Source: Patescibacteria group bacterium
GTDB taxonomy: Bacteria > Patescibacteriota > Patescibacteriia > UBA9570 > JAHJKD01
Length of the DNA: 60,525 nucleotides
Direction of reading: 5' to 3'
NCBI GenBank assembly: GCA_018822435.1
Contig: JAHJKD010000021.1
Location: 1 to 60,525, forward strand
Of the stretch, positions 27,667 through 59,832 are shown piece by piece. Position 1 is the first letter of the stretch, and every line of letters begins with the position of its first letter. A model generated the notes under the pieces. It searched no databases. It was not told the origin of the DNA and was given only the letters and a program-made list of their open reading frames with translations. The translations under genes were made by a program, and so were the position numbers.

Positions 27667-27684
27667 TAATAATTTATTAATTTT

Positions 27685-28548
27685 TTATTTCCAGCAATCC
27701 AGGTTCCTGCCAATTAATTTTTCCATTTGCTCTATATCATCTTTATAATATTGGTTTAGATGCTCTCTTGTTTCCGGTTTAATATCAGGTAAAGATTTAG
27801 ACATCTTAGCCACCGGCTTTTCTATTATATTATAATACATTTTCCTGGCATATGCCGAACGATAGAGCCGCATGCCAAAAGGACCCTTTTTTATCCGGTC
27901 AATCACGCCAAAATGGAATACTTTATAGATTCGAGACGTTTTTACGTTAGTAGGATTAATGACCTGCTCGGCTGACGGAGGAACAAAATTATCATTCACG
28001 CCTAAAAACTTAAAAATAGATTGCTGAAAAGCAACTGGATCATTTTTAATGTCCTCGTAGATTAAAACTTTGATTTTTTCCCGGCCGAATAACTCATAAT
28101 AATATTTTAATCTTTTTGCATATAAGCTGTCTTCAAGAATTTGATTTGTATCAGCTTTAATTAAATCATCAAAATCTTTTAAATCATGATGCGAATCAAA
28201 TTTGGCATGATAAAAAAAAGACATGGACCGATCAATCGGTTTTCTCAAGCAAACTAGTATTTTTATATCCGGAAAATTTTCTTTGAACCTGGCTGCACAC
28301 TTATCGTTGAAATAATCAGTCGTGAACTCCCCTTTTATTTGATTATCCTTACATTGATTATAATAAGTTGAGAAATAATAATCTAAACCCTTATTATAAT
28401 TTTCATCATGGCTAAAAAAACCTGTGTCTTTTATATTAGACATGCAAATATCCGGATGCTCGGCCAGGCATTCGTAAATCCAGGTGGTAGCGCATTTGGT
28501 CGCTCCGATGCCGACAAAATCCAATTTTTTATTGTTTGAACGCGTCAT
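27685..28548 (-). CDS. sulfotransferase-domain protein, tandem paralog
   Basis: 287 aa with GIGATKCATTW and VCLRKPIDRSMS. It aligns with the preceding ORF along its whole length. Confidence 0.8.
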   Translation of the reverse strand: MTRSNNKKLDFVGIGATKCATTWIYECLAEHPDICMSNIKDTGFFSHDENYNKGLDYYFSTYYNQCKDNQIKGEFTTDYFNDKCAARFKENFPDIKILVCLRKPIDRSMSFFYHAKFDSHHDLKDFDDLIKADTNQILEDSLYAKRLKYYYELFGREKIKVLIYEDIKNDPVAFQQSIFKFLGVNDNFVPPSAEQVINPTNVKTSRIYKVFHFGVIDRIKKGPFGMRLYRSAYARKMYYNIIEKPVAKMSKSLPDIKPETREHLNQYYKDDIEQMEKLIGRNLDCWK

Positions 28549-29738: not shown

Positions 29739-30650
29739 ATGAATAATTCAAGCCCTATACTGATTACAGGCGGGCCGCGTTCCGGATCAACCTGGGCTGG
29801 TAAAATTATCAGCAAATCCCCTGAAGTCGGTTATATCCATGAACCGTTTAACTTAAAATGCCACCCGGGCATATGTAATTGCCCGATTGACAAGTGGTTT
29901 TTTTATGTTAATGAAATTAATGAACATGAATTTTCAGAATGTTTTAACAGGACCTTGCATTATGAATACAATACAAGAGCCCAATTAAGCCGTAGTTTGA
30001 CCGTAGGAGCCAAACAATGGCTAGATTGGCAATATTATCGAATAACCAATAAGAGACCTCTTATTAAAGATCCGATTGCTATATTTTCGACAGAATGGCT
30101 GGTAAAAAATTTCAACATGAAACCGGTTATATTAATTAGACATCCGGCGGCTTTTATTAGCAGCCGAAAAAAACTAAATTGGGCTTTTCCGGCAAAAGAT
30201 ATATTATCCCAACCAGAGTTGATGAAAAAATTAGGGCCATTTAAAGAAGAGATCGAGAAACAGGCTGTCCAGAAACACGACATAATCGACCAAGGCATAC
30301 TAACCTGGAACCTGATGTATTATTTTATCAACGAACTAAAAGAGAAGCATGATGAATGGCTATTTATCCGATATGAAGATCTGGCCAAAGATCCTTTGAA
30401 AAAATATGCCGAAATATTTACATATCTTGATTTGGATTTTTCTAAAAAAATTAAAAATTTTATTTTGGATACAACCAGGGGAAAAGAGGTGGAAGTGGCC
30501 GTTGAAGACAGGCATGCCATTAAATTAAATACGGCCAAGGCTTTGAATAACTGGAAAAAGAGATTGTCTGAACAAGAAATTGAAAAAATAAAAATAGGGA
30601 CTGATCCCTATTGGAAATATTTTTACAAAGAGTCTGATTGGACGGACTAA
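29739..30650 (+). CDS. sulfotransferase family protein (third, divergent type)
   Basis: 303 aa. P-loop-like GGPRSGSTW near the N-terminus and ILIRHPAAFISS as a 3'-PB-like block. Confidence 0.7.
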   Translation: MNNSSPILITGGPRSGSTWAGKIISKSPEVGYIHEPFNLKCHPGICNCPIDKWFFYVNEINEHEFSECFNRTLHYEYNTRAQLSRSLTVGAKQWLDWQYYRITNKRPLIKDPIAIFSTEWLVKNFNMKPVILIRHPAAFISSRKKLNWAFPAKDILSQPELMKKLGPFKEEIEKQAVQKHDIIDQGILTWNLMYYFINELKEKHDEWLFIRYEDLAKDPLKKYAEIFTYLDLDFSKKIKNFILDTTRGKEVEVAVEDRHAIKLNTAKALNNWKKRLSEQEIEKIKIGTDPYWKYFYKESDWTD

Positions 30651-45912: not shown

Positions 45913-46653
45913 ATGCAAACAATTATCCTGGCCGCTGGCCAAGGTACGAGGCTAGCCCCTCTGTGCGATGAGATACCAAAAACATTACTGGCTTTGGATG
46001 ACAAAACCATTCTTGAACATATTTTTAATGTTTGTGTTAATTGTGGTTTGTATGATTTTTCGATTGTAACCGGGCACGGGCATCAGGCAGTAGATACTTT
46101 TTTAACCGATTATTTAATTCAGAGACCAGACATAAGAACAGAACTTATTTACAATGGTGAATATTTGAAAAAAGGAAATATATATTCTTACTACATGACT
46201 AAAGAAATTTTTCATGATGATGATCATGTAATAATCAATTCCGATACAATTTTTCACCAGAGCATTTTAGAAGACCTGCTTAACCATCCGGAAAAAAATG
46301 TTATGGCAATTGATGATGAAAAGGAGCTATCAGAAGAAGAAATGAAAGTCCTGCTCTGTGATCAAGGTAAAATAAACAAAATTCATAAATCAATTGACCC
46401 CGGGGAAGCTAAAGGTGAATATATTGGCTTAATGAAGCTCGGCCGGGAATACGCTTCTCAAATTGAAGAAGGTTTGGAAAAAACAATGTCTGAAGATGAC
46501 TCTCTTTATTATGAGGATGGTTTGCAAAAAGCGATTGATTTGGGCTTGACTATTCATCCCTTAAGCACAAAAGGGCGTCCGGCCATGGAAGTTGATACGC
46601 ATAACGATCTCGTAGACGCCAAGGAAATGATCAAAGATATTAGACTTTCATAA
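45913..46653 (+). CDS. sugar/polyol-phosphate nucleotidyltransferase (cytidylyltransferase-like)
   Basis: 246 aa. The N-terminal LAAGQGTRLAPL...PKTLL signature indicates the NTP_transferase fold. Confidence 0.8.
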   Translation: MQTIILAAGQGTRLAPLCDEIPKTLLALDDKTILEHIFNVCVNCGLYDFSIVTGHGHQAVDTFLTDYLIQRPDIRTELIYNGEYLKKGNIYSYYMTKEIFHDDDHVIINSDTIFHQSILEDLLNHPEKNVMAIDDEKELSEEEMKVLLCDQGKINKIHKSIDPGEAKGEYIGLMKLGREYASQIEEGLEKTMSEDDSLYYEDGLQKAIDLGLTIHPLSTKGRPAMEVDTHNDLVDAKEMIKDIRLS

Positions 46654-46654
46654 T

Positions 46655-47704
46655 ATGTCCGTAATATCCCGAAACATTCCTGCTCCCCTTTTTATAAAGA
46701 TAGAATCTGGCGCTTTTCGGAAATTAAAAAAAGTCCTGAAAGAAAATCATATTGAATTTGATAAACCGTTAATTATTTCAGAACGGAAAGTTTTAGAACT
46801 GGGCGGGAATGAAATAGTACGATCATTCGGCGAACCCGGCATTCATCTGGCCAAAGATAATTCTATTTCAGAGGGAGATGAGATTGGCATCAGCTTAAGG
46901 CAAAATAATAATGACGTCGTAATTTGTATCGGGGGCGGACGCATTCTTGATCTGGGAAAATATGCCGCTACCAAAGCTAAGCTAAACTATATCAGTATTC
47001 CTACTTCACCTTCTAATGACGGACTAGCTTCTCCTGTGGCTGTCTTAAAAAATAGCATTGGATTAACAGAAAGCCTGGGCGTGAACATGCCCATGGGAAT
47101 TTTAGTTGACCTGGATATGATGAAATCAGCCCCGATTGATAATATTAAAGCCGGCACTGGGGACCTGCTCTCTAATTTCTCTGCTTTAGAAGACTGGAAA
47201 CTGGCTTACGACGAAAATAAAGAGGGAATGGATGACTTTGCCGCATCCCTGGCTTATTCCGCGGCCGACCTGATGTATGGCAAGTTTGCCGGGTGCCAAA
47301 AAGTGGAACTTGATGAAGAGAAATTTTTAAAAACCCTAGTCAACGGATTGATACTATCAGGCATTGCCATGAATATTGCCGGATCTTCCCGCCCTTGTTC
47401 GGGCGCGGAACATGAAATATCCCACGCGATTGATAAATTATTTCCGGGCCGGTCCATGCACGGGCTTCAGGTTTCTCTGGGTATTTTGATAGCTGAGAAA
47501 TTAAGGAAAAAAGATTTTGAGAATTATAATAAGTTTTTTGAACTGATCGGCCTGCCAACCCGGGCTGAAGATATTGGCCTGACTGATGATGAATTAATGC
47601 AAGCATTAGAACTGGCACCCAATACTCGACCGGATCGGTTCACAATATTAGAAAAAAAGAATTTAGATAAAAAAAAGATCAAAGAATTAGTTAAATCACT
47701 TTAA
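46655..47704 (+). CDS. egsA: sn-glycerol-1-phosphate dehydrogenase family (EgsA/AraM-like, Fe-ADH superfamily)
   Basis: 349 aa. GGGRILDLGKYAATKAKLNYISIPTSPSNDGLASPVAVL, AGTGDLLSNFSALEDWKLA, SRPCSGAEHEISHAID and HGLQVSLG match the conserved G1PDH blocks as I remember them. Confidence 0.8.
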   Translation: MSVISRNIPAPLFIKIESGAFRKLKKVLKENHIEFDKPLIISERKVLELGGNEIVRSFGEPGIHLAKDNSISEGDEIGISLRQNNNDVVICIGGGRILDLGKYAATKAKLNYISIPTSPSNDGLASPVAVLKNSIGLTESLGVNMPMGILVDLDMMKSAPIDNIKAGTGDLLSNFSALEDWKLAYDENKEGMDDFAASLAYSAADLMYGKFAGCQKVELDEEKFLKTLVNGLILSGIAMNIAGSSRPCSGAEHEISHAIDKLFPGRSMHGLQVSLGILIAEKLRKKDFENYNKFFELIGLPTRAEDIGLTDDELMQALELAPNTRPDRFTILEKKNLDKKKIKELVKSL

Positions 47705-48429
47705 TGGAGGAAAACGACCCAAGAAGGGTTATTAAAAAAGAAGACGGCCTGTGGGCTTATTATTTTATTGCCCAGCTGGGCAATATTTTTGCCCGCATCG
47801 GGACTCGGGAAAAATTTCTAACTCCTAATCTTTATACTACTCTGTCATTCCTATTAGTAATGGCCGCATGTGTTTTATTTGCTGGATTCAGAGATTATTG
47901 GTACATGATTATCGGGGCTGTTCTTATTAATTTAGCCTTGGCATTTGATTGCGCTGACGGACAGCTGGCCCGCCTATCTAATCAGATGAGCAAGCTGGGC
48001 CATTGGTATGATTATCATTCTGATAAAATCAAAGACGGCATAATTTTAATATCTCTTACTATTGCCGCTTATTACCAGACAGAATGGATCTGGTTGTTTT
48101 TTGTTGCCTTCGGCACCATATTTTTCCAGTTTCTCAGAAATATTACCCGGTTGAACAGAGTAATTTTTCAATTAGAGACTAAAGGCGAAATTAAAGATAA
48201 GAAAGCAGTTGAGGATAGCAAAGTTAAATCGCAGTTCATGCGCAGCTTTCGCCATTCGCTTTTATTTAAAGAAGCTGATCGTTACTTTCTGTTTACAATT
48301 GCAATTGTTTTAAATCAAGTAGCAATAGGTTTAATTATTTATTTCGCTTTAGAAATTATTTTTGCCGCCGTATCAGCGGCAATATCTTATAAAGAATACG
48401 CCCGGTATGACCGACGCATGGCAAGATAG
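47704..48429 (+). CDS. CDP-alcohol phosphatidyltransferase family protein
   Basis: 241 aa, polytopic. The signature D-x2-D-G-x2-A-R-x8-G-x3-D-x3-D is present as DCADGQLARLSNQMSKLGHWYDYHSD. Confidence 0.85.
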   Translation: MEENDPRRVIKKEDGLWAYYFIAQLGNIFARIGTREKFLTPNLYTTLSFLLVMAACVLFAGFRDYWYMIIGAVLINLALAFDCADGQLARLSNQMSKLGHWYDYHSDKIKDGIILISLTIAAYYQTEWIWLFFVAFGTIFFQFLRNITRLNRVIFQLETKGEIKDKKAVEDSKVKSQFMRSFRHSLLFKEADRYFLFTIAIVLNQVAIGLIIYFALEIIFAAVSAAISYKEYARYDRRMAR

Positions 48430-48432
48430 CCA

Positions 48433-48510
48433 TGAAAGCGGATTTCACAAATCCGCCTATATGAACCCGTCTGCCAAAGCACGTATGGCGGACATGTGAT
48501 GTCCGCTTTC
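48433..48510. repeat. twin-hairpin GC-rich repeat, copy 2
   Basis: The left arm is TGAAAGCGGATTTCACAAATCCGCC (48433-48457). A 29-nt spacer follows, then the right arm GGCGGACATGTGATGTCCGCTTTC (48487-48510). It lies between two co-directional genes. Confidence 0.85.
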
Positions 48511-48534
48511 CATAAATATAATCAAATATAAAAT

Positions 48535-50127
48535 ATGAACAAAGTAGTAGTAATCGGACTTGATGGCGGAACTTTTAAATTACTGAAACCTTTAGCCGAA
48601 GAAGGCGTCATGCCGAATTTCAAGAAACTTTTAGACCAAGGCTCTTCTTCTATTTTATGGTCCACGATGCCGCCGATGACAGGCACAGCCTGGTCCAGCT
48701 TTGCCACAGGAAAAACTCCGGGGAAACACACGGTGTATGACTTTTTATTGCCGGATGAAGATCTATCACAATTTCATATTACTTCGGGAAAAGATATTAA
48801 AGGAAAGACTTTACCAGAAATAATATATGAAAATAGCAAACATCCAATTACGGTAAACATGCCTAATTCCTGGCCTCCTCGTCTAGGAAAGACCGGCGAG
48901 GTAGTAATTACTTCAATTCTGACCCAGGGCGACCAATGGATCTGGCCGGAAGGCTTGGAAAAAGAAATCCCGGAATTAAAAGATTATCAACTTACGCCAA
49001 ATGAATCACTCCGATTAAAAGGAGCAAAAGACTCTTATGCTGATGCGGTCCTTGATCTGGCAGATAAACAAATGGCTTGTGTAAAAAAATTATTCAAGCA
49101 AAAACCCTGGGACTTCTTCTTTTATTTATTTTCATCAACTGACTGGATCCAGCATGCTTCTTTTGACGAGTTAATGGAAAACAGGGCTGAGTCCCCACTT
49201 AGAATCTATAAACAAGTCGATGAATATCTCGGCTGGTTTATGGATAGCCTGCCAGAAGGGGCTGATCTGATGATCATGTCTGATCATGGCTTTAAATCAT
49301 TCAAGAAGACTTTTTTCTTCAATAAATGGCTGGAAAAAGAAGGTTACTTAAAAACCAAATCTACGGGAGATGATTTTAAGCAAGCTGTGACCCGCCGCGC
49401 TAAAGAGACTGAGAAAGTCCGGGCGAAAAAGAAAAAGTTCAGCATTGGAAAACCGATTTTTGATCTGATGGAGAAAATGCCTTGGTTAGAAAAGCCGGCC
49501 AAAAATGTTTATCATAAAGTTGTAAAAAAATACCTGCCTGTAAATGTGAAGGTTGATATCGGCATTGATTATGATCATACCAAATGTTGCTTTCCTAAAG
49601 GATCATATATGACCAATGCTTATATTAATGATACGAAGAAATTTAAAAATGGCGTGGTTAAAACTGACGAGGAATATAATCAAATTCGTGACGAAATTAT
49701 AAGGAAAATTAAAAATCTCAAAGGCCCTGACGGCGAACCGGTCGTCTCTGATGTATTTACCAAAGAACAAATTTACGGTGAAGACACGGCCACTATGTGC
49801 CCGGATCTTTTCTTTAAGCACGCGGACTATTGGCTGGACGGCCAGTTCCACACGGGAAAATTATTTGAAGAAGGCGTGGTTTCCAATAAACATGATTTTG
49901 ACGGCGTATTCATCGCCTATGGCCCCAGCTTCAAAGAAGGCCATAAGATCAAACAAAAAATCGGCATCAAGGATATTGCGCCGAATATTCTGCACCTGAT
50001 GGATGTGCCCGTACCGAAAGATATGGATGGCGTAATTATTGAAGAAATTTACAAAGAAAAAAAGCCTGTTAATTATCAGACGGAAAAAAGTGAAATCAGC
50101 GGCATGCTGGATGATATTGATATATAA
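48535..50127 (+). CDS. alkaline-phosphatase superfamily protein (type I phosphodiesterase/nucleotide pyrophosphatase-like), cytoplasmic
   Basis: 530 aa with no TM helices or signal peptide. Metal-site Asp in VIGLDGGTF, nucleophile region TMPPMTGTAWSSFATG, and MIMSDHGF. Confidence 0.75.
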   Translation: MNKVVVIGLDGGTFKLLKPLAEEGVMPNFKKLLDQGSSSILWSTMPPMTGTAWSSFATGKTPGKHTVYDFLLPDEDLSQFHITSGKDIKGKTLPEIIYENSKHPITVNMPNSWPPRLGKTGEVVITSILTQGDQWIWPEGLEKEIPELKDYQLTPNESLRLKGAKDSYADAVLDLADKQMACVKKLFKQKPWDFFFYLFSSTDWIQHASFDELMENRAESPLRIYKQVDEYLGWFMDSLPEGADLMIMSDHGFKSFKKTFFFNKWLEKEGYLKTKSTGDDFKQAVTRRAKETEKVRAKKKKFSIGKPIFDLMEKMPWLEKPAKNVYHKVVKKYLPVNVKVDIGIDYDHTKCCFPKGSYMTNAYINDTKKFKNGVVKTDEEYNQIRDEIIRKIKNLKGPDGEPVVSDVFTKEQIYGEDTATMCPDLFFKHADYWLDGQFHTGKLFEEGVVSNKHDFDGVFIAYGPSFKEGHKIKQKIGIKDIAPNILHLMDVPVPKDMDGVIIEEIYKEKKPVNYQTEKSEISGMLDDIDI

Positions 50128-50877: not shown

Positions 50878-51552
50878 TTATTCTGCTTTAGATAATCTCC
50901 AAGCACTTAAAACCTGCTTGATAATAAGCGGTATACTGATCAGAATGATGAAGACCAGTAAATATATTTCAATGTTGAAGATAACAGCCAGAGAAACAGC
51001 ATAAATGGTGATGTCGACCGTGCCTAAATAAATTTTTTCCGTGATATAAAATTCAGCGGTCCGCGTGGTGGGCCAGCTGGATTTTTTGGCTTCGCGCAGA
51101 TAGCCGACCATCAGCCACAGAACCATGGCCGCGGCGCCAATAACAATGCCGAAAGTAAGGTGGGTTTCCGACCACCAGAGATAAGTCATGGCCGCGAACA
51201 TGAGCATTTCTTTGATGCGGTCGGAAATAGAATCAAACCAGGCCCCGAATTTGGAAGACATGTTCTTGATACGGGCAATCTCACCATCAGAGCAATCAAG
51301 AGCAAAACCGACCTGTAAGAGAACGACACCGAATAAACGCCACCAATAATAAGGCATCATGAAAAATACGGCCGCCAGGATCGTGATCATGAAGGACAGC
51401 ATGGAAACCTGATTCGGCGTAACGCGCGGATCCAGCTTCATCAGCCAGAAAGTGAACAAACGAGAAAGACGCCGCGTGAACAGCGTGGAAAATATGCTGT
51501 CGTGCGGTTTTTGATAGGCTTTGACGTCGCTAATCTTTTGGGGTAAGTTCAT
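50878..51552 (-). CDS. CDP-alcohol phosphatidyltransferase family protein (second copy)
   Basis: 224 aa, polytopic. The signature reads DCSDGEIARIKNMSSKFGAWFDSISD. Confidence 0.85.
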   Translation of the reverse strand: MNLPQKISDVKAYQKPHDSIFSTLFTRRLSRLFTFWLMKLDPRVTPNQVSMLSFMITILAAVFFMMPYYWWRLFGVVLLQVGFALDCSDGEIARIKNMSSKFGAWFDSISDRIKEMLMFAAMTYLWWSETHLTFGIVIGAAAMVLWLMVGYLREAKKSSWPTTRTAEFYITEKIYLGTVDITIYAVSLAVIFNIEIYLLVFIILISIPLIIKQVLSAWRLSKAE

Positions 51553-53359
51553 ATATTTTTACTTCATCTACCAGGTCAAACTGGTAAGAGCCGTATTCAT
51601 TTAAATTATAATTTTTATTTAAGAAATCATTGGTGACTGCTTGGGTGCCGGAATCCTGCCAGAAATAAATTGTATAACCTTCGTCCATTAATTTGTCCAT
51701 GAACTCCCTGACCTGATCATTGTCAAACACAAACTTTTCCTGTTCCATGGGCGTGCGCACTGTTTTTAAGCCCGTATGCGTTTCCATGGTTTCAGACAAA
51801 CCATATTGCCAGCGGCCACTAAACATGAGTATTGGCGGCAGACTGTCCTGCCCCTTTAGGGGTAGGACAGTCGAGCCAGCCGGGGCAGTCGAGCCAGCAT
51901 GCTCTTGATTAATACTATCACCTATCTCAATTAAGGTTAACAGGTCATTTTGAGAAATAGCCTTGTTTTTTAACACTTCTAATTCTATATTTTCTTTTAC
52001 CTCAGAATAAGCCGGAACATAGATGACCAGAATCGATAGGACCGCCAGAGCGCCCACCAGATACGATATGCGCTTGGATTTAAATAAAGATGGAATCAGT
52101 ACCGATAAAACCCAATACAAGCCAAAAGAGCCTAATATGGCCAAGGCAGGAAAGGCCACGATCATATACCGGGAATAAGGATTGATCCACATGCTGAAGA
52201 GAGCAAGAAAGCCAAGTACCCATAATGCCAGAAAGGCGGATAAAAATTTATTCTTGCGCCAGATAAAGATAATGCCGATTATGACGAGGATCATGAAATA
52301 AGGGATCCACGACATCCGGTTGTTCATGATATCCCAATAATGCTTCAGTCCCCCGTTTTCAGTTTTGAATTTTCCGCGGCTTTCGAAAATATTTAACGGG
52401 CTTAATGAAGTGACATGATCAATATTTGATACGACTACAGATCCGGAAGTGTCTTTTTTCTTGAAGGCCTCTTTGTTTGCAGAAATATCCACGGAGTTTT
52501 TGATAGTCAGGCCAAGGGGAATAATCATGAGGATGGCAAAAACCAGGAGCAAGCGCGATATTTGCATCGTGTTTATTTTCCGGGTTTTTTGCTTGTCCCA
52601 GAACAGACCGAACAAAACAAGATAAGCGGGTAAAAATGCGACTCCGGTATGGCGGATGTTTAAGCTAAAGCCTAAACATAAAATACTTAAAATAATTAAA
52701 GCAAGTTGAAAGCGGACGTCACTACGTCCGCCACCACCGGATGATAGGCGGATTTTGTGAAATCCGCTTTCAAATTGGTAAAAAGCCAGCAAAAATAAAT
52801 AAACAGAAAGAAGTATAAAAAACAATGAAGGGATCTCACGCATAGGCTGCGAAATCGCATAGTCATAGTATAAGCTTGAGAATCCGACAGTTATGGCCGC
52901 GAGCAAGCCAAATGCCCAGCCCCATTTTTTTATTTTAAGTGCTTTGAATAAAAGCTGACAAATTAAGAAGATTAATATTAAGTTCAAGGCGGCCAAAACC
53001 GGAACAACCGAATATATAGAAAGGTCGTTTCCAGTAATAGTTGCGGTCCAGTACATAATATAAGACAGGCCAACCGGATATATTGAAGACAGCCAGCCAT
53101 CCGGAGAAATTATTTCATGATGGGTCGGGGTAAGCCAGCGGGCCAGGCGCTCGTCGCCGAAATGTTCTATCCCCTTTTGGACGAGTTCATCCTGATAAAC
53201 CAAAGGCTCGCCCTGAAGCAGGCGTCCGGCCAAATACAAATAACCCGGACTGTCATCGCCCCAGGCGCCATATGCGTGGTTCTGCCAGTAGATCCAGCCG
53301 AAGCCCAGGCCTAAAATTAAAACAAGGATAATCGTAATTATCCAGGCGTACTTTTTCAT
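51530..53359 (-). CDS. GT-C fold polytopic glycosyltransferase-like protein carrying two in-frame repeat insertions
   Basis: 609 aa with GDDSPGYLYLAG in the first loop, more than 10 TM helices and a C-terminal soluble domain. It contains twin-hairpin repeat copy 4 (52707-52772) and a family-2 hairpin (51843-51870) without any frame disruption. Confidence 0.75.
   Translation of the reverse strand: MKKYAWIITIILVLILGLGFGWIYWQNHAYGAWGDDSPGYLYLAGRLLQGEPLVYQDELVQKGIEHFGDERLARWLTPTHHEIISPDGWLSSIYPVGLSYIMYWTATITGNDLSIYSVVPVLAALNLILIFLICQLLFKALKIKKWGWAFGLLAAITVGFSSLYYDYAISQPMREIPSLFFILLSVYLFLLAFYQFESGFHKIRLSSGGGGRSDVRFQLALIILSILCLGFSLNIRHTGVAFLPAYLVLFGLFWDKQKTRKINTMQISRLLLVFAILMIIPLGLTIKNSVDISANKEAFKKKDTSGSVVVSNIDHVTSLSPLNIFESRGKFKTENGGLKHYWDIMNNRMSWIPYFMILVIIGIIFIWRKNKFLSAFLALWVLGFLALFSMWINPYSRYMIVAFPALAILGSFGLYWVLSVLIPSLFKSKRISYLVGALAVLSILVIYVPAYSEVKENIELEVLKNKAISQNDLLTLIEIGDSINQEHAGSTAPAGSTVLPLKGQDSLPPILMFSGRWQYGLSETMETHTGLKTVRTPMEQEKFVFDNDQVREFMDKLMDEGYTIYFWQDSGTQAVTNDFLNKNYNLNEYGSYQFDLVDEVKIYELTPKD
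51843..51898. repeat. hairpin family 2, intragenic copy, plus an 18-nt tandem duplication
   Basis: CTGTCCTGCCCCTTTAGGGGTAGGACAG spans 51843-51870. CAGTCGAGCCAGC is repeated at 51868-51880 and 51886-51898. On the minus strand the region is translated as AGSTAPAGSTVLPLKGQDS. Confidence 0.8.
52707..52772. repeat. twin-hairpin GC-rich repeat, copy 4, inside a CDS (66 nt, in frame)
   Basis: The left arm TGAAAGCGGACGTCACTACGTCCGCC is followed by a 14-nt spacer and the right arm GGCGGATTTTGTGAAATCCGCTTTCA. On the minus strand it is translated as ESGFHKIRLSSGGGGRSDVRFQ. Confidence 0.85.
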
Positions 53360-53385: not shown

Positions 53386-54879
53386 TTATTTCAAGGGATT
53401 ATGATTTATTCTTCTGATTAGGAAAATTGCCGATGCTCCAGCAAATAAAGTTAAAATAAGAGTAAAATATGTGAATTCAGGTACGCCAGGTCCGGGCGGC
53501 TCCTCATCGCTTTCATAAGGGCCGATATCATAACCGGATCCCTGCGGCCGGGCCGTACCCATAATATCTATTGTCACGGCCGCGATCGTAAGGCCATTAT
53601 CCACTCCGCTCCAGGTATTATCGCGGATAAAACGGGTGACATAAAACGTATCACTGGCGCCGACGCCGTAATCTGAAGGCGCATACCCTATTTCCGGTCG
53701 GGCCACATTAAGAGTATTTTCGTCATTATCAATGATATACCACATATGCCGGGTGTCGTCGTCCGGCACAAAGTAATATCCGCCCATCATGAACTGGTGC
53801 GCTGTCCACGGACTGCCGCTCACGTTGATGTCTGTCACGAAGTCATAGGCATTACTACCGCTTTCTGTTAGGGAGCTGACTGTTCCGGTAGCGGTTTTTA
53901 TGAAATTCGGATCATCACTATTTGTGTTTGGTCCTTTTGAACACTGGTCGAGATATATATCACCCCCATTGTTGTACCAGCTGTTGTAATCAAAGGTGCC
54001 GCAATTCGAACCTAGCAATCTTCGGAGCGCATACCCTTCAGCTCCATAAAACATATTATTGTAAAAAACCGGAGCCACCACATTATATAGGTTCAATTGG
54101 TTGGTGGTAAACATGTTGTTATAGTACAAGGGTGAACCAAATATATAGGCGGGAGGACCGCCCCATGCAAAGATACTATTAAATGCCTGTAGTGATGGAG
54201 GGTACTGACCGTCTCCGTTTGATAGACGCGACTGATAAATATTGGCAATACCACCACCGGTTGGAGTGCTTACGAGGGCCATGGGGCCGCCGGCCAGTTC
54301 TGAATTCTGCAAAGTGCCGGATGAATTCATTATTATCTGAATCCCGCTATTTGAGCCAGTGCCATTCTGGGTAGACCAAACGTCATCAAGCGTATAATTC
54401 GTACAATTACGTGAATCAATGCCATTATTGATATTTCGGTTGGCCCAGATGCGCGTGACAACCGGACACGCAGTTGCGGAAGGGCTGATCCAGATTCCTG
54501 CTTTGCCGGTTCCGGCACCGGTAACCTGTAAATCCTGAATGATTACCGCGTCACTTAGGGCATTGGCGTCAATACAATGGTCAACGGGCGAAGCGCCTGA
54601 GCAATCAATAATAGTTTGTGTCCGTCCTGCCCCGAGCAGGTCAATTTCTTTAATCAGGTTTACATCTTCAAAATATGTCCCTGCGGCGATGCTCATGCTG
54701 TCGCCGTTCGCACCCTGGCCGATTGCATAATTGATCGTACAGCACGGGCTTCCCGCGGTCTGGCAATTTCCAATATCCGCGCAACCATCATCATCAACAT
54801 AAAGATCAGCCGCCATGGCCATGCCGGCTGCTCCGAAGATTCCAAAACATAAAATTAGGAGATATCCTCCGATTTTCAT
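53386..54879 (-). CDS. secreted parallel beta-helix protein with PEF-CTERM-like sorting tail
   Basis: 497 aa. It has a signal peptide (MKIGGYLLILCFGIFGAAGMAMA), a Cys-rich N-terminal cap and Asn/Gly/Ser-rich beta-helix repeats. The sequence ends ARPQGSGYDIGPYE...PGPGVPEFTYFTLILTLFAGASAIFLIRRINHNPLK. Confidence 0.8.
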   Translation of the reverse strand: MKIGGYLLILCFGIFGAAGMAMAADLYVDDDGCADIGNCQTAGSPCCTINYAIGQGANGDSMSIAAGTYFEDVNLIKEIDLLGAGRTQTIIDCSGASPVDHCIDANALSDAVIIQDLQVTGAGTGKAGIWISPSATACPVVTRIWANRNINNGIDSRNCTNYTLDDVWSTQNGTGSNSGIQIIMNSSGTLQNSELAGGPMALVSTPTGGGIANIYQSRLSNGDGQYPPSLQAFNSIFAWGGPPAYIFGSPLYYNNMFTTNQLNLYNVVAPVFYNNMFYGAEGYALRRLLGSNCGTFDYNSWYNNGGDIYLDQCSKGPNTNSDDPNFIKTATGTVSSLTESGSNAYDFVTDINVSGSPWTAHQFMMGGYYFVPDDDTRHMWYIIDNDENTLNVARPEIGYAPSDYGVGASDTFYVTRFIRDNTWSGVDNGLTIAAVTIDIMGTARPQGSGYDIGPYESDEEPPGPGVPEFTYFTLILTLFAGASAIFLIRRINHNPLK

Positions 54880-54903
54880 TGAATTTATTATACCAAAAAT
54901 AAC

Positions 54904-56007
54904 CTAAAATGTAGAGGCAATGTCTTTGGCTACTTCTTTCCAAGTATATTTTTGGGCATATTTTTTATTATGTTCAGAAATTTCTCCAAGTTTAGGATTT
55001 TTTAAGAGTTTTTCGATTTTTTCACCCAATTCATTGACATCTCCTTCGGAAAAAAGTTCCCCACATTCAGGCGTGATTATCTTTTTAATTAGAGGAAAAT
55101 CCGTTGACACTACTGGTAATCCGCAAGCCATGTATTCAAAGATTTTAAGGGGTGAAAAGTAAAAACCATATTTTTTGAATTCCCCTTTTTCACTTAGTTT
55201 TGTGTTAAAAGGAGCCACGCCGATGCGGGCCTGGCATAAATAATTTTTCACTTCTTCAATCGGCACTTTTCCGGTTATAGTAATATTTTTTAATCTATAT
55301 TTTTGAATCAATACTTCAACCCTTTCCCGCCGTACTCCGTCTCCTATTAATAAAAATTTTATTCCTCTATAACGTCTTGCTACCTCAACCAAGTCTTCCA
55401 GACCATCCCACTCTTTAAAAGCGCCCAAATAGGCAACATCGTACTTTTTTTCCTGCTTGACCGGATAAAAATACCTAGGATCAAAGCCAGCATCAACTAA
55501 TTTCACTTTTTTCTTGTATGCCGGCTGGAAAAAAGCATTGGTGTAGGCAATAATAGCTTTGGCCCGCCTTTCCGACATGAAAGAAAAAATATGGTCAATA
55601 GTTTCCAAAACTAAGGGCCGGCCCGTTAATTTTGAGGCGATAGCTCCGACCCCGCGGGAATGGCCTCTTTCAATTATTATATCGGCTTTTTCCTGCCTGA
55701 TCAGTTTGGCAATATGCTGGGCTAAAATTGTATTCGGGATTATACGAAGCGGACGCAATAAAACACGAGCTCGTGTTTTTTTGATGGACTGAGCTGATCC
55801 AACTACAGTCCGGTTAAGACGATATATTTTTATCCCGTCAATCATTTCAACCTCTTTTTCGTTGGGATATTTCTCGGAAATAATAAAAACCTCATGCCCC
55901 ATTTTTGTAAGTTCCTTGGCAATGGAAAACGTGTGCGTGGTCGCCCCGATCGCTTCATTGAAATCAGAAGAGATGTGAACAGTGGTGGTTATGTAGAAAA
56001 TTTTCAT
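54904..56007 (-). CDS. GT4 glycosyltransferase
   Basis: The start MKIFYITTTVH at 56007 is preferred. The track start at 56031 (MMSAFKKY) is a translation of repeat copy 3. The E-x7-E-like region reads SPLKIFEYMACGLPVVSTDFP. Confidence 0.85.
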   Translation of the reverse strand: MKIFYITTTVHISSDFNEAIGATTHTFSIAKELTKMGHEVFIISEKYPNEKEVEMIDGIKIYRLNRTVVGSAQSIKKTRARVLLRPLRIIPNTILAQHIAKLIRQEKADIIIERGHSRGVGAIASKLTGRPLVLETIDHIFSFMSERRAKAIIAYTNAFFQPAYKKKVKLVDAGFDPRYFYPVKQEKKYDVAYLGAFKEWDGLEDLVEVARRYRGIKFLLIGDGVRRERVEVLIQKYRLKNITITGKVPIEEVKNYLCQARIGVAPFNTKLSEKGEFKKYGFYFSPLKIFEYMACGLPVVSTDFPLIKKIITPECGELFSEGDVNELGEKIEKLLKNPKLGEISEHNKKYAQKYTWKEVAKDIASTF

Positions 56008-56015
56008 GTATTTCT

Positions 56016-56080
56016 TGAAAGCGGACATCACATGTCCGCCAACAGTTTTTTATAGGCGGATGTAGTGACATCCGCTTTCA
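56016..56080. repeat. twin-hairpin GC-rich repeat, copy 3 (divergent intergenic region)
   Basis: The left arm is TGAAAGCGGACATCACATGTCCGCC (56016-56040). A 14-nt spacer follows, then the right arm GGCGGATGTAGTGACATCCGCTTTCA (56055-56080). Both arms are identical to those of copy 1. Confidence 0.85.
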
Positions 56081-56085
56081 TCCCA

Positions 56086-56114
56086 TTGAAAAATGTACTA
56101 TTCCTTAGTATAAT
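56086..56114 (+). promoter_or_regulatory. sigma70-like promoter candidate abutting the exosortase-family gene
   Basis: TTGAAA (56086-91), a 17-nt spacer, then TATAAT (56109-14). The ATG at 56122 is 7 nt after the -10 box. Confidence 0.4.
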
Positions 56115-56121
56115 ATATTAT

Positions 56122-57099
56122 ATGCCAGCCTTAGAAAAAGTCAAAGACAAGTTCTCAACCGGATTTTTCCAGTTCATCGCACTCGGAATTCTTTTTGTAG
56201 TCATTATTTTTGTGGAAAAGCAATTTTTCCCTTCTTCCAAAGAACTTGTCCAGTTCAATGTGGTGGGCCGCAGTTCCGTGGTCCTGCCTCTTTTAATGAT
56301 GCTAGTATTCTTTGCCTGGACAAAAGACAAGCTTTTTAAAGTAAAAAAATTCGCTTTCCGGTATAAACAAGCGATTTTCTTTGGACTGCTTCATTTAGGA
56401 GCATTATTTGCCTTTATTGCCCTGAAAAACTTTATTATTTACGATGAGCCGATTGCCCTTGAACATTTTAATCTGATCGTGTTTCTTCGTTATTTACTAC
56501 CGGCTCTTGTGGTCATATTTCTGGCTCTGGCATTATTTTCCCGGACTTTTATCAGACATTTTATCTGGCCGCTTTTGGGTTCGGCCGTACTGGGTTGGAT
56601 ATTTTTTCAATTAAGCCTGTATTTTAAGAGATTTTGGGAAGTTTTTTCCGATGCAGTCGGTTATTCTGTCTTTTGGTTATTACAACTCTTTGGTCAAAAT
56701 CCCACTTTCTCTGAGTCAAATTTCGGGCCGGTAATTGGGTTTCCGGAATTTTCTTTACGCATTGAAGCACCATGTTCTGGCATAGAATCAATTAGCTTGT
56801 TTATTTTTCTTTTTGCCCTGATCGTTATTATCGACCGGAAAAAGCTGATTCCCTGGCGAGCGGTATCAATGTTTGTAATCGGAATATTAGGCGTATTTTT
56901 GGTAAATATTCTAAGAATTTTTATTTTGTTTTTAATTGCCATTTATATTGATCTTGAATTTGCCGTCCACACTTTTCATACTAATGCCGGCTGGATATTA
57001 TTTATCATGTACTTTGGATTGTTTTGGTTTTTTGTTTATGGTTTTATTAATAAAAAACAAATCGATACTAATATTCGACCGTCTGATCTGAAGGATTAA
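56122..57099 (+). CDS. exosortase/archaeosortase family transpeptidase-like membrane protein
   Basis: The start MPALEKVKDKF at 56122 is preferred. The GTG track start at 56065 lies inside repeat copy 3. The protein is polytopic and carries APCSGIES (Cys), NILRIF (Arg) and FHTNAGW (His), in the order expected for the EpsH/exosortase superfamily. Confidence 0.8.
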   Translation: MPALEKVKDKFSTGFFQFIALGILFVVIIFVEKQFFPSSKELVQFNVVGRSSVVLPLLMMLVFFAWTKDKLFKVKKFAFRYKQAIFFGLLHLGALFAFIALKNFIIYDEPIALEHFNLIVFLRYLLPALVVIFLALALFSRTFIRHFIWPLLGSAVLGWIFFQLSLYFKRFWEVFSDAVGYSVFWLLQLFGQNPTFSESNFGPVIGFPEFSLRIEAPCSGIESISLFIFLFALIVIIDRKKLIPWRAVSMFVIGILGVFLVNILRIFILFLIAIYIDLEFAVHTFHTNAGWILFIMYFGLFWFFVYGFINKKQIDTNIRPSDLKD

Positions 57100-57123
57100 T
57101 ATTAATTTTAATGAATATGTTTA

Positions 57124-57144
57124 GCCAGCCTTGGCTGGTTTTTT
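57124..57144. terminator. weak hairpin plus T-run between convergent genes
   Basis: GCCAGCCTTGGCTGG is followed by a T6 run (57139-57144). The stem is short and the T-run overlaps the stop of the minus-strand gene. Confidence 0.3.
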
Positions 57145-58498
57145 AGATTGTATTGTGTTTCTTGTTCAATCGCCCGATCAGCAGGATCAAGCCGATGCCG
57201 GCGCCAAGGGCGAGCATCATGGTAAGGATGGTGAATTCCGGCACGCCACCGCCGCCGCCGCCGTCAAGCTGGTCAGCACCCATGGACCAGGCACCGCCCC
57301 AGGGCCTGGGGTCGCCGTCATAGTCATCATTAATGCCTACAATAGTGGTTCCCAGGTCATTAACTGGCGAGCCAGCCTGGATGTGGAGGTTGCTCGGAGC
57401 ACTGACGAACTGAGGATTTACATCAGTGGAATTGGCGTCTCCGGAAGAAGCTGTCTGCCAGTTGGCCAGCGTTTGCTGGGCGCCGCTGACCCAATAACCG
57501 GCATTAGAACCGCCGCCTTCAAGATAGAAGTCATTGTAATTGGATGCCAGGCCGGAAGTGGAAGCGGCATTATATACGTAAATTCCATAAGCTGCCCGGC
57601 TGGGTATGGAAAAAATATTGTCTCTAATGACGGTGTTGGTGGCTGGAGAGCCCTTGGAGTCGCCCAAATTTACGCCAACATCATTATCAGCAAAACTATT
57701 GTTGACCACGCTATTTGAATCGTCGTAAGCGGTAAATGTCACGCCATTAAGGTCATTGCTGTAAATAAAATTATTGGCGATAGTCACGTTTGACACCGAA
57801 AAACTCACAGTTCCGCCCAATGCAATGCCATCTCCCGCGCCGCCTCCATTTGTAATATTATGAATGGCATTCCGCGTGATGGAAAGGCCGGAAAAACTAT
57901 CCGGTGTTGCGCGAGAACCGTTAATTCCAGCAACTTGGTGGCTAAATATATTATTTTGAGATATAACAATGTCAGTTCCAGACGATATGTTAATGCCGTT
58001 TCCGCTGCTTGATATCGTGTTGTTCAAAATAGTGGCATTATGCGAGTTAGAGCCGATCATAATCCCGTCAAAAATTGCCGTGGTAATAGTAAGATCGCGA
58101 ATAGTCACATTCAGGGCCGGGTTGCCCGCGTCGCCCAGAACGAATCCGTAGAACGCAGTCGGAGGATTTGGCGGATCAACTGTACAGGAATTGCCGGACC
58201 AGTTGTCCCAGGTAGTGTTGTCATGGCCGGCTGAAGAACCAAGAGTGATTTGCTCATTAAATGTTCCTTCGCAATAGATGTTTTCCCCGCTGGTTGAGGA
58301 GGACGCGGCCGTTACCAAAGAGTTACAGGTAGTTGCCGGAGTCGGCGGCAGAGCTTGGCGGATGCAGGGATTGGCGCCGCCCTGGTCTGACACCCATAAA
58401 GCGGCCCAGGATGCCTGAGGCATTAATAAGAATCCGCCCAAAACCATGGCCGATATCAGGATTTGGAGGGATTTTTTTATTTTTAGATCAGCACGCAT
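57143..58498 (-). CDS. secreted parallel beta-helix protein with PEF-CTERM-like sorting tail
   Basis: 451 aa with a signal peptide (..LLMPQASWAALW) and PbH1-like repeats (NNTISSSGNGINISSGTDIVISQNNIF). It ends ...GGGGGVPEFTILTMMLALGAGIGLILLIGRLNKKHNTI. Confidence 0.8.
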   Translation of the reverse strand: MRADLKIKKSLQILISAMVLGGFLLMPQASWAALWVSDQGGANPCIRQALPPTPATTCNSLVTAASSSTSGENIYCEGTFNEQITLGSSAGHDNTTWDNWSGNSCTVDPPNPPTAFYGFVLGDAGNPALNVTIRDLTITTAIFDGIMIGSNSHNATILNNTISSSGNGINISSGTDIVISQNNIFSHQVAGINGSRATPDSFSGLSITRNAIHNITNGGGAGDGIALGGTVSFSVSNVTIANNFIYSNDLNGVTFTAYDDSNSVVNNSFADNDVGVNLGDSKGSPATNTVIRDNIFSIPSRAAYGIYVYNAASTSGLASNYNDFYLEGGGSNAGYWVSGAQQTLANWQTASSGDANSTDVNPQFVSAPSNLHIQAGSPVNDLGTTIVGINDDYDGDPRPWGGAWSMGADQLDGGGGGGVPEFTILTMMLALGAGIGLILLIGRLNKKHNTI

Positions 58499-58518
58499 AG
58501 ATTTATATATATATAAAT

Positions 58519-59832
58519 TTAATTAAGGGCACTATGAGATTTGTTGATTTTGGAAATAAGAATAATTACGCCCAGGCCGGCGAACAGGGCCAGCATAAGG
58601 GTGAAGAGGGTGAATTCCGGGACGCCTGGTTGGTCTTCCAGTCTTTCATCGGCACCAATGTCATAGGCCGGACCCTGGGGCCGGGAAAGGCCCTTGTGGT
58701 CAACCAGGACGCTGGCAATGGTCACTCCCTCGTCAATTGCCGGCGAACCGGCTGATAATCCCAAACCGTCAATTGTAGGATTTTCATATAAAGGATCCTG
58801 GTCAATGGAATTAACAGATTGGCCAGTTAATGTTTGCCAGTGAGCAAGAGAAGTGGCAGTTGTTCCAGCCCATCGGCCGATACTAGCTCCACCAGTTGCA
58901 TATATGTCGTTGTAATCAACCGTCATGGTGCCAGTTGAATTCCCATCAACTACAACCATTTCTCCCGCACCAGCATTGCGGTAGTGGGCATTATTCCGGT
59001 AATTAGTGTTTGAACACGGACCAGCAGCTGTACCAATCTCAATTCTGTTCTGATAAAAGGAATTATTCCAGATATTTACATTACTTGCTGTCGTATGGCA
59101 TGTCAGAGAGGGAAGAAAACTTTGCCCTTGCTGACCGAAATAAGTATTTTTTATGGTCACGTCATCCCAATTATCAATCGCCATGCCGGCTTCAAAATTG
59201 ACTTTGCTGTTTGTGGAAACCGTGCCCTTATTAATGGTTAAGCCGCTGGGATTATTGGTTGCAGGATCAAAAGCATATATTCCATAACCGTCATTATTTT
59301 TAACCTCAGGCCCGATTAAACTGACATCGAATGAACTGGCAATCTCAAAGCCGGCATTATCAGATTTATTAACAGATATGGTTTCCATGACAATGTCGCT
59401 GGCAGCCGCCCGGATCCATACCTCCCGCATAGTATGATCTTTTACTTCAAAATCCTGGATATATATATGATCAGCCGCAAATATTTCAATCCCTTCTTGT
59501 ACAGATCCTCCACCATTAATGACTGGCCTTACTTCACCGGGCCAGCGGATAATGCTTTTTCGATTGGCAGCACTGGCGCCCGAGTCTCCCGCACCAACAC
59601 TAAAGGCTGACAGATTTCCAGATGCCCAAATAGTGTCACTGGCAGTAACTGTTTGAGTCAAAGCATAATTAATTGAAGCGCAGGCGGATGAGGTGGATGC
59701 GCATGACTGGCAATTGCCGGCATCAGCCCCGCCCTGCCAAACGCAAAGAGTGGCTGCTTGAATTAATGTGGGGACAAGCAGTATAAATGCACAAATGAAA
59801 AATAATATTTTTTTTAGAGCGCTTTTTTTCAT
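58519..59832 (-). CDS. secreted parallel beta-helix protein with PEF-CTERM-like sorting tail
   Basis: 437 aa with a signal peptide (..FILLVPTLIQAATL) and a Cys-rich cap (NCQSCASTSSACASINYAL). It ends SRPQGPAYDIGADE...DQPGVPEFTLFTLMLALFAGLGVIILISKINKSHSALN. Confidence 0.8.
   Translation of the reverse strand: MKKSALKKILFFICAFILLVPTLIQAATLCVWQGGADAGNCQSCASTSSACASINYALTQTVTASDTIWASGNLSAFSVGAGDSGASAANRKSIIRWPGEVRPVINGGGSVQEGIEIFAADHIYIQDFEVKDHTMREVWIRAAASDIVMETISVNKSDNAGFEIASSFDVSLIGPEVKNNDGYGIYAFDPATNNPSGLTINKGTVSTNSKVNFEAGMAIDNWDDVTIKNTYFGQQGQSFLPSLTCHTTASNVNIWNNSFYQNRIEIGTAAGPCSNTNYRNNAHYRNAGAGEMVVVDGNSTGTMTVDYNDIYATGGASIGRWAGTTATSLAHWQTLTGQSVNSIDQDPLYENPTIDGLGLSAGSPAIDEGVTIASVLVDHKGLSRPQGPAYDIGADERLEDQPGVPEFTLFTLMLALFAGLGVIILISKINKSHSALN

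Follow-up and report, generated by a model that had tools for sequence, protein, structure and literature searches.

The window analysed here comprises positions 1-60,525 of contig JAHJKD010000021.1 (assembly GCA_018822435.1) of a Patescibacteria group bacterium. Near one end it encodes a polytopic membrane protein and three proteins, referred to as S1, S2 and S3, each of which carries an N-terminal signal peptide and ends in a tail with the motif GVPEF. The subject of this report is the proposal that the membrane protein is a sorting enzyme of the exosortase/archaeosortase type and that the three tailed proteins are its substrates. The features of the locus, in positions of the window, are the following.

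53386-54879, minus strand: putative substrate S1, 497 residues, with signal peptide, Cys-containing N-terminal cap, Asn/Gly/Ser/Thr-rich body, choice-of-anchor Q motif and GVPEF tail
53389-53499, minus strand: putative sorting tail of S1, PPGPGVPEFTYFTLILTLFAGASAIFLIRRINHNPLK
54904-56031, minus strand: glycosyltransferase of family GT4 (PF13692, 79 bits; PF00534, 77 bits)
56086-56114, plus strand: sigma-70-like promoter match, TTGAAA-17-TATAAT, 11/12 positions, ending 7 nucleotides before the ATG of the enzyme gene
56122-57099, plus strand: exosortase/archaeosortase-family membrane enzyme, 325 residues, eight predicted transmembrane (TM) helices, Cys218/Arg265/His286
57123-57140, plus strand: terminator-like hairpin and T-run, a pattern match within the 43-nucleotide gap between the convergent enzyme and S2 genes
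57143-58498, minus strand: putative substrate S2, 451 residues, with signal peptide, right-handed beta-helix and GVPEF tail
57146-57259, minus strand: putative sorting tail of S2, GGGGGVPEFTILTMMLALGAGIGLILLIGRLNKKHNTI
58519-59832, minus strand: putative substrate S3, 437 residues, with signal peptide, right-handed beta-helix, choice-of-anchor Q motif and GVPEF tail
58522-58638, minus strand: putative sorting tail of S3, EDQPGVPEFTLFTLMLALFAGLGVIILISKINKSHSALN

A first-pass annotation of this DNA had listed three minus-strand open reading frames (ORFs) with GVPEF tails and one polytopic ORF; all four were confirmed with their coordinates, and the tails read exactly as it had quoted them. The N termini of S1, S2 and S3 are all signal-peptide-like, and the extreme C terminus of each protein is tripartite, i.e. 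it consists of GVPEF, ~20 hydrophobic residues and a basic cluster. The GT4 gene sits between S1 and the enzyme gene and is divergent from the latter. Gene callers placed the start of the enzyme at ATG 56122 in three assemblies, and the mechanical ORF opens at GTG 56065; the sigma-70-like match is a hint in favour of the ATG, and promoter-like sites across the region show no excess over shuffled sequence. No tRNA genes and no Rfam matches were found in the window.

The membrane enzyme and the tailed proteins

The polytopic ORF, which carries the motifs APCSGIES, NILRIF and FHTNAGW, had been read as an exosortase/archaeosortase-family enzyme. This reading is borne out by the family model TIGR04178 (51.3 bits, cutoff 23) and by Pfam PF09721 (56.7 bits, cutoff 25.7), both of which are passed, and by these profile matches the enzyme is a member of the superfamily. 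Among the named subfamilies, the enzyme scored highest on archaeosortase C (ArtC, TIGR03762; 62.4 bits, cutoff 100), followed by exosortase E (XrtE, TIGR04162; 46.5 bits, cutoff 150); the score on the XrtA model was 22.8 bits (cutoff 208). Moreover, the PF02517 (CPBP) domain is absent from the 325-residue protein in Pfam scans, so that the enzyme lacks the fused protease of exosortase E. The relatives of the enzyme behaved similarly: among 10 other members of the clade, the ArtC model gave 39-64 bits for six and no match at E <= 1e-4 for four, and all 10, which lie at varied distances, passed only the generic signature. In total, these matches place the enzyme, as judged from sequence, in an unnamed archaeosortase-like subfamily whose members occur mostly in DPANN archaea.

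Across 51 aligned homologs, distant exosortase-CPBP fusions among them, no positions other than C218, S219, G220, N262, R265 and H286 were invariant. Cys, Arg and His are the family's suspected catalytic triad (Haft 2023 preprint), and in the ArtA literature Cys173 of the Haloferax enzyme counts as a residue of the active site. Because C218, R265 and H286 are invariant and fit this description, we assign them to the suspected triad of the family, in agreement with the earlier proposal that the Cys/Arg/His residues of the ORF occupy catalytic positions. From hydropathy and the positive-inside rule, the protein is predicted to cross the membrane in eight TM helices and to have cytoplasmic N and C termini; in this topology, Cys218 is placed where TM6 ends on the outer side, Arg265 within the outer half of TM7 and His286 in the outer TM7-TM8 loop. 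All three residues are thus predicted to lie on the extracytoplasmic side, which is also where a tail of N-out/C-in orientation would have its PEF motif. An AlphaFold model of the enzyme, built from 41 homologs, had a pLDDT of 87 and a pTM of 0.78; no solved structure resembling the enzyme was found by a PDB sequence profile search, and the best match in a fold search had E = 1.4.

The enzyme itself contains a PEF tripeptide (GFPEFSLRIEAPCSG; residues 204-206, window positions 56733-56741), 12 residues before the catalytic Cys. Relatives carry FPDF, FREF or FGSF in its place, and since the tripeptide is not conserved, it is probably a coincidence.

The three tailed proteins had been described as sharing one beta-helix architecture. 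For S2 and S3 this was upheld by matches to the beta-helix family PF13229 (48.5 and 34.4 bits, respectively), to which S2 adds 40 bits on PF05048, and for S3 also by a structural model; S1, by contrast, has no Pfam beta-helix match and was tied to S2 and S3 by BLAST only. In the AlphaFold model of S3, the core has a pLDDT of 86-96 and is followed by a C-terminal helix at residues 409-432, and the top PDB matches were all right-handed beta-helices with a probability of ~1.0, i.e. alginate epimerases and lyases, polygalacturonases, phage tailspikes, NosD and the pneumococcal adhesin PfbA. The motif RPxG..(Y/W)D(I/M)G, which was thought to close the helix in each of the three proteins, corresponds to the NCBIfam choice-of-anchor Q domain NF041518 (cutoff 25 bits); S1 (25.9 bits) and S3 (39.1 bits) score above the cutoff, but S2 (17.4 bits) is below it.

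Very few homologs of the substrates were detected, and strains differ in how many substrates they encode (three versus five); both points suggest that these are fast-evolving surface proteins, i.e. adhesins or glycan-active enzymes. According to its model, the fold of S3 would fit such a protein at least as well as an S-layer lattice, and Pfam and NCBIfam scans of the substrates gave no matches to S-layer families. N-glycosylation sequons in the substrates do not exceed compositional expectation (P = 0.17-0.71), and the linkers before the tails are rich in Gly, Pro and acidic residues rather than in Ser and Thr. Glycosylation of the substrates is plausible from the context, which includes the GT4 gene, a GT-C-type glycosyltransferase gene and a large glycan locus.

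The GVPEF tail and related signals

We surveyed 53 independent enzyme-bearing loci, comprising 724 kb, for tails consisting of PEF, a TM helix and basic residues. Forty such tails were detected, spread over 19 of the 53 loci; by comparison, a control set of 15 tripeptides, to which PEP, PGF and every rearrangement of P, E and F belonged, yielded 0-2 tails per tripeptide in the same loci, with none for PEP. The position before the motif (-1) is V or I in 33 of the 40 tails and the position after it (+1) is S, T or G in 39, i.e. the residues V/I-P-E-F-S/T/G are kept and the hydrophobic stretch is variable. The motif abuts the TM helix with no spacer, an arrangement described as typical of signals cut by deeply embedded enzymes (Haft 2023 preprint). 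The first-pass annotation had proposed a pairing of sortase and substrates, and the survey agrees with it in that PEF-type tails accompany the enzyme in distant loci rather than turning up independently of it.

The tails are conserved far above the proteins that carry them. Between S1 and S3, identity is 55% in the final 69 residues and 28% in the N-terminal ~160. On contig L010, whose enzyme is identical to that of the window, five GVPEF-tailed proteins follow in a row, and one of these is a Laminin-G protein that shares only the last ~33 residues with the others, with 53-62% identity in this part. Beside enzymes of 55-56% identity, found in a metagenome-assembled genome (MAG) of Ca. Kerfeldbacteria and in a related contig, the corresponding motifs are GIPEF, DIPEF, DVPEF and IPEY, and beside enzymes of only ~30-45% identity, [V/I]PEF tails were detected on small unrelated proteins, including eight consecutive ones in one Woesearchaeota contig. 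Finally, in distant homologs of the passengers, the choice-of-anchor Q motif is followed by a stop codon or by the C-terminal domain of type IX secretion system (T9SS) substrates instead of a PEF tail. Because the tail is also present on the unrelated Laminin-G passenger, comparison of these sequences identifies it as a portable sorting signal and not a mere paralog feature; its conservation above that of the passenger, its position after the motif that ends the passenger and its co-occurrence with the enzyme likewise argue for a sorting signal.

The same observations bear on a different explanation, in which the tails are unprocessed membrane anchors that resemble each other through paralogy and the enzyme acts elsewhere, e.g. 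in polysaccharide export as in the old EpsH idea. The substrates are paralogous beta-helix proteins and the enzyme is encoded within a glycan locus, as this explanation would have it; however, paralogy does not account for the tail of the Laminin-G protein, for the recurrence of the motif on small unrelated proteins beside ~30% identical enzymes in the other domain of life, for the retention of V/I-P-E-F-S/T/G next to a variable hydrophobic stretch, or for passenger homologs that bear other anchors or none. We consider unprocessed anchors quite improbable.

A 39-residue profile of the tail, run against 1.84 billion representatives, returned six genuine matches, all of them close relatives; at this size, the wider [V/I]PEF family is beyond the reach of the profile.

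Three curated signal families were considered. Formal membership in the ArtC/PEF-CTERM system was rejected, as both the enzyme and the window tails score under the NCBIfam cutoffs; Loki-CTERM (14-17 bits, with 16-17 for the tail of S1, versus a cutoff of 19.9) and PEFG-CTERM (10-14 bits versus a cutoff of 25) were rejected as well. Among the related archaeal loci, one Woesearchaeota tail passes the PEF-CTERM model TIGR03024 with 25.1 bits (cutoff 23), and four other Woesearchaeota tails score 14.8-17.7 bits, several of them aligning from model position 1. From these scores, the system appears to grade into PEF-CTERM/ArtC, and on sequence grounds we regard it as a sister subfamily that has no name yet and whose PEF-type signal is divergent.

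Archaeosortase C has been described as paired with PEF-CTERM in Methanosarcinales-type archaea. The system described here shares with it the literal PEF that abuts a TM helix followed by basic residues, in the three window tails as well as the 40 tails of related loci, in addition to ArtC being the top named subfamily of the enzyme and one archaeal tail of the clade passing TIGR03024. The differences are that the known hosts are methanogenic or methanotrophic archaea, whereas the host here is a bacterium and the clade is otherwise mostly DPANN-labelled, and that the motif here prefers V or I at position -1. ArtA is described as the only experimentally characterised member of the family; it is reported to cleave the PGF-CTERM tail of Haloferax volcanii's S-layer glycoprotein, which becomes lipid-anchored, and to depend functionally on PssA, a homolog of CDP-alcohol phosphatidyltransferases. 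The pairings of PEF-CTERM with its archaeosortase and of PGF-CTERM with ArtA that the first-pass annotation had given agree with this literature. The superfamily, the Cys/Arg/His logic, the tripartite signal and the presence of CDP-alcohol transferase genes near the cassette are common to ArtA and the enzyme studied here. By contrast, the ArtA motif is PGF, ArtA is not among the NCBIfam matches of the enzyme, and the host here has bacterial lipids; moreover, the CDP-alcohol transferases encoded nearby have inositol-phosphate transferases and not PssA as their best matches, and they are not kept in relatives with 55% identical enzymes.

The XrtA/EpsH system with its PEP-CTERM signal resembles the system described here in being bacterial, in belonging to the same superfamily and in its classical location in exopolysaccharide loci, and the neighbouring GT4 protein scores best, though weakly, on the model of a PEP-CTERM/XrtA-system glycosyltransferase; however, the motif here is PEF and not PEP. 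V-P-E is shared with the VPEID-CTERM signal of XrtE, which is the best named subfamily for several archaeal members of the clade, but XrtE is fused to a CPBP protease domain and such fusions were observed here only among the most distant homologs. Sortase A, which acts on LPXTG signals, is a functional analogue, as it is a Cys/Arg/His transpeptidase that anchors secreted proteins via a C-terminal tripartite signal. Its fold is unrelated, the tails described here are without LPXTG, and the spacer between the LPXTG motif and the helix (Haft 2023 preprint) has no counterpart in them. One of the top structural matches to S3 is a beta-helix adhesin of Streptococcus pneumoniae, PfbA. PfbA is anchored via LPXTG.

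Three related loci contain unusual tailed proteins. In the Ca. Kerfeldbacteria MAG GCA_043813585.1 (L001:13722-15851, minus strand), two complete substrates are fused in one frame: the first ends in ...EIPEYSLVTILLALVGGVSVFLYLKYSSR, with a PEY variant of the motif, and leads straight into a new signal peptide, MKRVFFGIGVV... As the second substrate follows in the same frame, the tripartite signal of the first lies inside the fused protein, a situation reminiscent of Haloferax HVO_0405 with its internal ArtA site. In contig L002 (13980-15223, minus strand), a beta-helix substrate is split by a frame change, so that the called protein of 385 residues is tailless and a separate ORF of 82 residues carries ...DVPEFSLITLIVAIGLGLGTFGFVRRR; this gene is either a pseudogene or the product of an assembly error. 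Finally, a Planctomycetota MAG (L052:9197-9619, plus strand) encodes a protein ending in ...APEIDPALWVSGAILLVGGLLIVTGRRR, a VPEID-CTERM-like tail, beside a distant homolog of the enzyme, in line with the secondary similarity of the enzyme to exosortase E.

Host, assembly and distribution of the enzyme

The genome that holds these proteins is labelled 'Patescibacteria group bacterium' by NCBI. In the window, mraY (226.5 bits, cutoff 192) and murA (495.6 bits, cutoff 392.7) score above the equivalog cutoffs, and the same contig encodes ribosomal proteins L9 and L27. Ribosomal proteins L9 and L27 are bacteria-specific. Because these four genes are contiguous with the cassette, the host is, as far as its gene content tells, a bacterium of the Patescibacteria, or candidate phyla radiation (CPR). 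The earlier statement that this is a bacterial host that makes peptidoglycan stands for mraY and murA; ddl, which it had also named, is linked to S3 in this assembly only, and the bacterial assignment is independent of ddl.

Across the cassette, four independent assemblies are 100% identical to the window. Within the 5' end of S3, at a T-run at window position 59815, the sequence parts from that of two other assemblies (at L010:11383 and at the end of L011), one of which is an NCBI MAG contig; these two share an AT-rich spacer at the junction, where the first ~6 codons of S3 differ. L010 continues past the junction into two more GVPEF substrates, one of them the Laminin-G protein, and a GT4 gene. 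The adjacency of S3 and ddl was found in the window assembly only, and the divergence reflects either strain variation or an assembly join.

This disagreement, together with the mostly archaeal relatives of the enzyme and a GC content that is somewhat higher in the cassette region than in the rest of the window, could point to an archaeal cassette that ended up in a bacterial contig through wrong assembly or binning. An artefact of this kind would have to reproduce, in independent assemblies and at 100% identity, the contiguity of the cassette with mraY, murA and the L9 and L27 genes. Moreover, the enzyme gene has a GC content of 0.366 and a GC content at third codon positions (GC3) of 0.371, i.e. 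like the housekeeping genes, which argues against a chimera as well as against a recent import, and the regional rise in GC is due to the Gly/Ala-rich substrate genes. The adjoining GT-C gene belongs to a Patescibacteria-wide family, and the clearly bacterial contig L004 carries an enzyme that is 43% identical to that of the window. We regard an artefact as extremely unlikely.

A motif-guided scan of one genome per GTDB species identified 39 loci of the enzyme clade. Thirty-seven of these are archaeal-labelled and mostly DPANN, comprising Woesearchaeota, Nanoarchaeia/Nanoarchaeota, Pacearchaeota, unclassified archaeal MAGs and some 'uncultured Methanosarcinales'; the remaining two are a Kerfeldbacteria relative and a weak Planctomycetota match with a VPEID-like tail. 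With 37 of 39 species-representative genomes archaeal and ArtC as the top named subfamily, the 'archaeal flavour' that the first-pass annotation had attributed to the enzyme is well founded. A metagenome scan with an alignment of the bacterial clade, which is no gauge of the frequency of that clade, confirmed at least nine loci among the matches listed, all of them distant. A 2018 review assigns archaeosortases to 'a subset of Euryarchaeota', and we found no literature linking an archaeosortase or exosortase to Patescibacteria or the candidate phyla radiation.

The enzymes labelled 'uncultured Methanosarcinales archaeon' (L016-L018, L021, L026, L033 and L040, from binchicken assemblies) cluster among those of Woesearchaeota and Nanoarchaeia, and some are almost identical to a Woesearchaeota enzyme; the taxon labels of these records look doubtful.

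In a neighbour-joining tree, for which the outgroup and root are arbitrary and the domain labels come from MAG bins, some of them doubtful, the window enzyme, its close relatives and the Kerfeldbacteria enzymes form a clade in 200 of 200 bootstrap replicates, and the same clade is joined by the enzyme of L004 in 188 of 200 (94%). In 83% of the replicates, this bacterial clade lies at least two nodes inside archaeal sequences. The L004 contig is unmistakably bacterial, with a ribosomal operon, RpoA, MreB and FtsA. Based on the tree, a single inter-domain transfer into CPR bacteria most likely gave rise to the bacterial copies, and the direction was likely from archaea to CPR. The transfer is most likely old, and the gene now has a host-like base composition.

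Proposed mechanism and the adjacent glycan locus

Altogether, we conclude with a probability of roughly 80% that this Patescibacteria locus is a cassette dedicated to protein sorting, of the exosortase/archaeosortase type, and that its signal is a divergent relative of PEF-CTERM. Several observations weigh against this conclusion. The window tails gave no match to the PEF-CTERM model TIGR03024 (cutoff 23) even at E <= 10, and the enzyme misses the cutoff of every named Art/Xrt subfamily. Thirty-four of the 53 enzyme loci are without a PEF tail; in the bacterial locus L004 and the archaeal locus L006, none was found within 10 kb of the enzyme. Moreover, the genes for CDP-alcohol transferases are missing from L001 and L002, and the tree has the arbitrary root and the partly doubtful labels mentioned above.

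The mechanism that we propose for the cassette has four steps. First, the beta-helix proteins would be exported via Sec by means of their N-terminal signal peptides. Second, the C-terminal helix would hold each protein in the cytoplasmic membrane, with the basic residues in the cytoplasm and [V/I]PEF at the outer face. Third, by analogy with the chemistry of ArtA, the enzyme with its eight TM helices may recognise the motif and cut outside the membrane with Cys218, helped by Arg265 and His286. Fourth, and also by analogy, an acyl-enzyme (thioester) intermediate would be resolved onto an acceptor, and the mature protein would stay at the surface minus its helix. Candidate acceptors are the amine of a membrane lipid, as proposed for ArtA, or a glycan or glycolipid from the adjacent locus, which we keep in play because of the association of the enzyme with GT4 and flippase genes.

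The locus in question extends from ~12 kb to 56 kb of the window and includes Rml genes, many GT2 and GT4 genes, flippases, a GT-C gene of the PMT family and three sulfotransferases. A large glycosylation locus with the cassette at its end had been part of the first-pass annotation, and a glycan locus of ~40 kb is indeed present. The two genes next to S1 on its downstream side are the following.

51530-53359, minus strand: GT-C-type (PMT_2/ArnT-like) membrane glycosyltransferase, 609 residues, immediately downstream of S1 on the same strand
50878-51552, minus strand: CDP-alcohol phosphatidyltransferase (PF01066, 62.8 bits), with a 23-nucleotide overlap with the GT-C gene

The protein of 609 residues has no direct Pfam match; its homologs form 78 clusters, mostly from Patescibacteria, and as ~20 of the 78 carry PMT_2/PMT domains (PF13231 or PF02366), we assign it to the GT-C glycosyltransferases. 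The family is widespread in Patescibacteria, and most of its members are without Pfam annotation. The best NCBIfam matches of the CDP-alcohol transferase at 50878-51552 are inositol-phosphate transferases, all under the cutoffs, and it is a possible candidate for the supplier of the acceptor head group. Both genes occur in L054, where the GT-C gene is kept beside the GT4 gene and the enzyme. The arrangement of GT4 and enzyme genes is the same in L001, L002, L010 and L054, i.e. the pairing is kept in the Kerfeldbacteria-type loci with 55-56% identical enzymes.

Elsewhere in the glycan locus, genes for an NTP-transferase, a glycerol-1-phosphate-dehydrogenase-like protein, a CDP-alcohol phosphatidyltransferase and a Phosphodiest-family protein lie in a row (45913-50127, plus strand). 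The dehydrogenase-like protein scores 266.6 bits on NF002022 (cutoff 413), the best match of the transferase is archaetidylinositol-phosphate synthase, under the cutoff, and the four-gene set is kept in L054, which is an 81% relative. Judged by these matches, the set looks like a pathway for a CDP-activated polyol-phosphate, which would be unusual beside a glycan locus in a CPR bacterium. The three sulfotransferase-family genes (PF00685) lie at 26812-28548 (minus strand) and 29739-30650 (plus strand); their presence within the glycan locus suggests that the surface glycan of the host may be sulfated.

The surroundings of the enzyme are relevant to the outcome of the last step, as the sorting pair could be true and its outcome a different one, i.e. 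hydrolytic release of the proteins or their attachment to a cell-wall or glycan polymer, similarly to sortase A or the exopolysaccharide-linked PEP-CTERM model. A GT4 or flippase gene is directly adjacent to the enzyme in 13 of the 53 loci and within 3 kb in 22, the cassette lies at the end of the ~40-kb glycan locus with its GT-C enzyme, the host makes peptidoglycan precursors, and archaeosortases may not be one-step transpeptidases at all (Haft 2023 preprint). However, ArtA, the sole member studied experimentally, yields lipid-modified proteins, and the association with glycosyltransferases is partial, the density of GT4 and flippase genes being only ~1.7-fold higher within 3 kb than further out in the 53 loci. 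We think release or polymer attachment the less probable outcome.

Returning to the sorting cassette, its widest interpretation is that CPR bacteria took archaeosortase-type anchoring from DPANN archaea that share their groundwater habitat, that this anchoring replaces LPXTG sortases and covalently fixes fast-evolving beta-helix adhesins or glycan-active proteins, and that the lipid or glycolipid acceptor comes from the adjacent genes for the glycerol-1-phosphate-dehydrogenase-like protein, the NTP-transferase, the two CDP-alcohol transferases and the GT-C enzyme. We offer this scenario tentatively and consider it unlikely as a whole. If true, it would be a cross-domain and previously undescribed way of anchoring surface proteins in bacteria without an outer membrane and would bear on the attachment of episymbionts to their hosts.

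The underlying mechanism is of an already known kind, and the advance lies in distribution, annotation and evolution and not in a new principle. As to annotation, curated models miss both the subfamily and its signal. As to evolution, the enzyme adds a case from the cell envelope to the genes common to CPR bacteria and DPANN archaea. Both groups are ultra-small and mostly episymbiotic, their surface proteins mediate contact with the host, and surface display in CPR bacteria is poorly known; the pair of enzyme and [V/I]PEF-CTERM tag could make it possible to predict the anchored surface proteome of these lineages from sequence.

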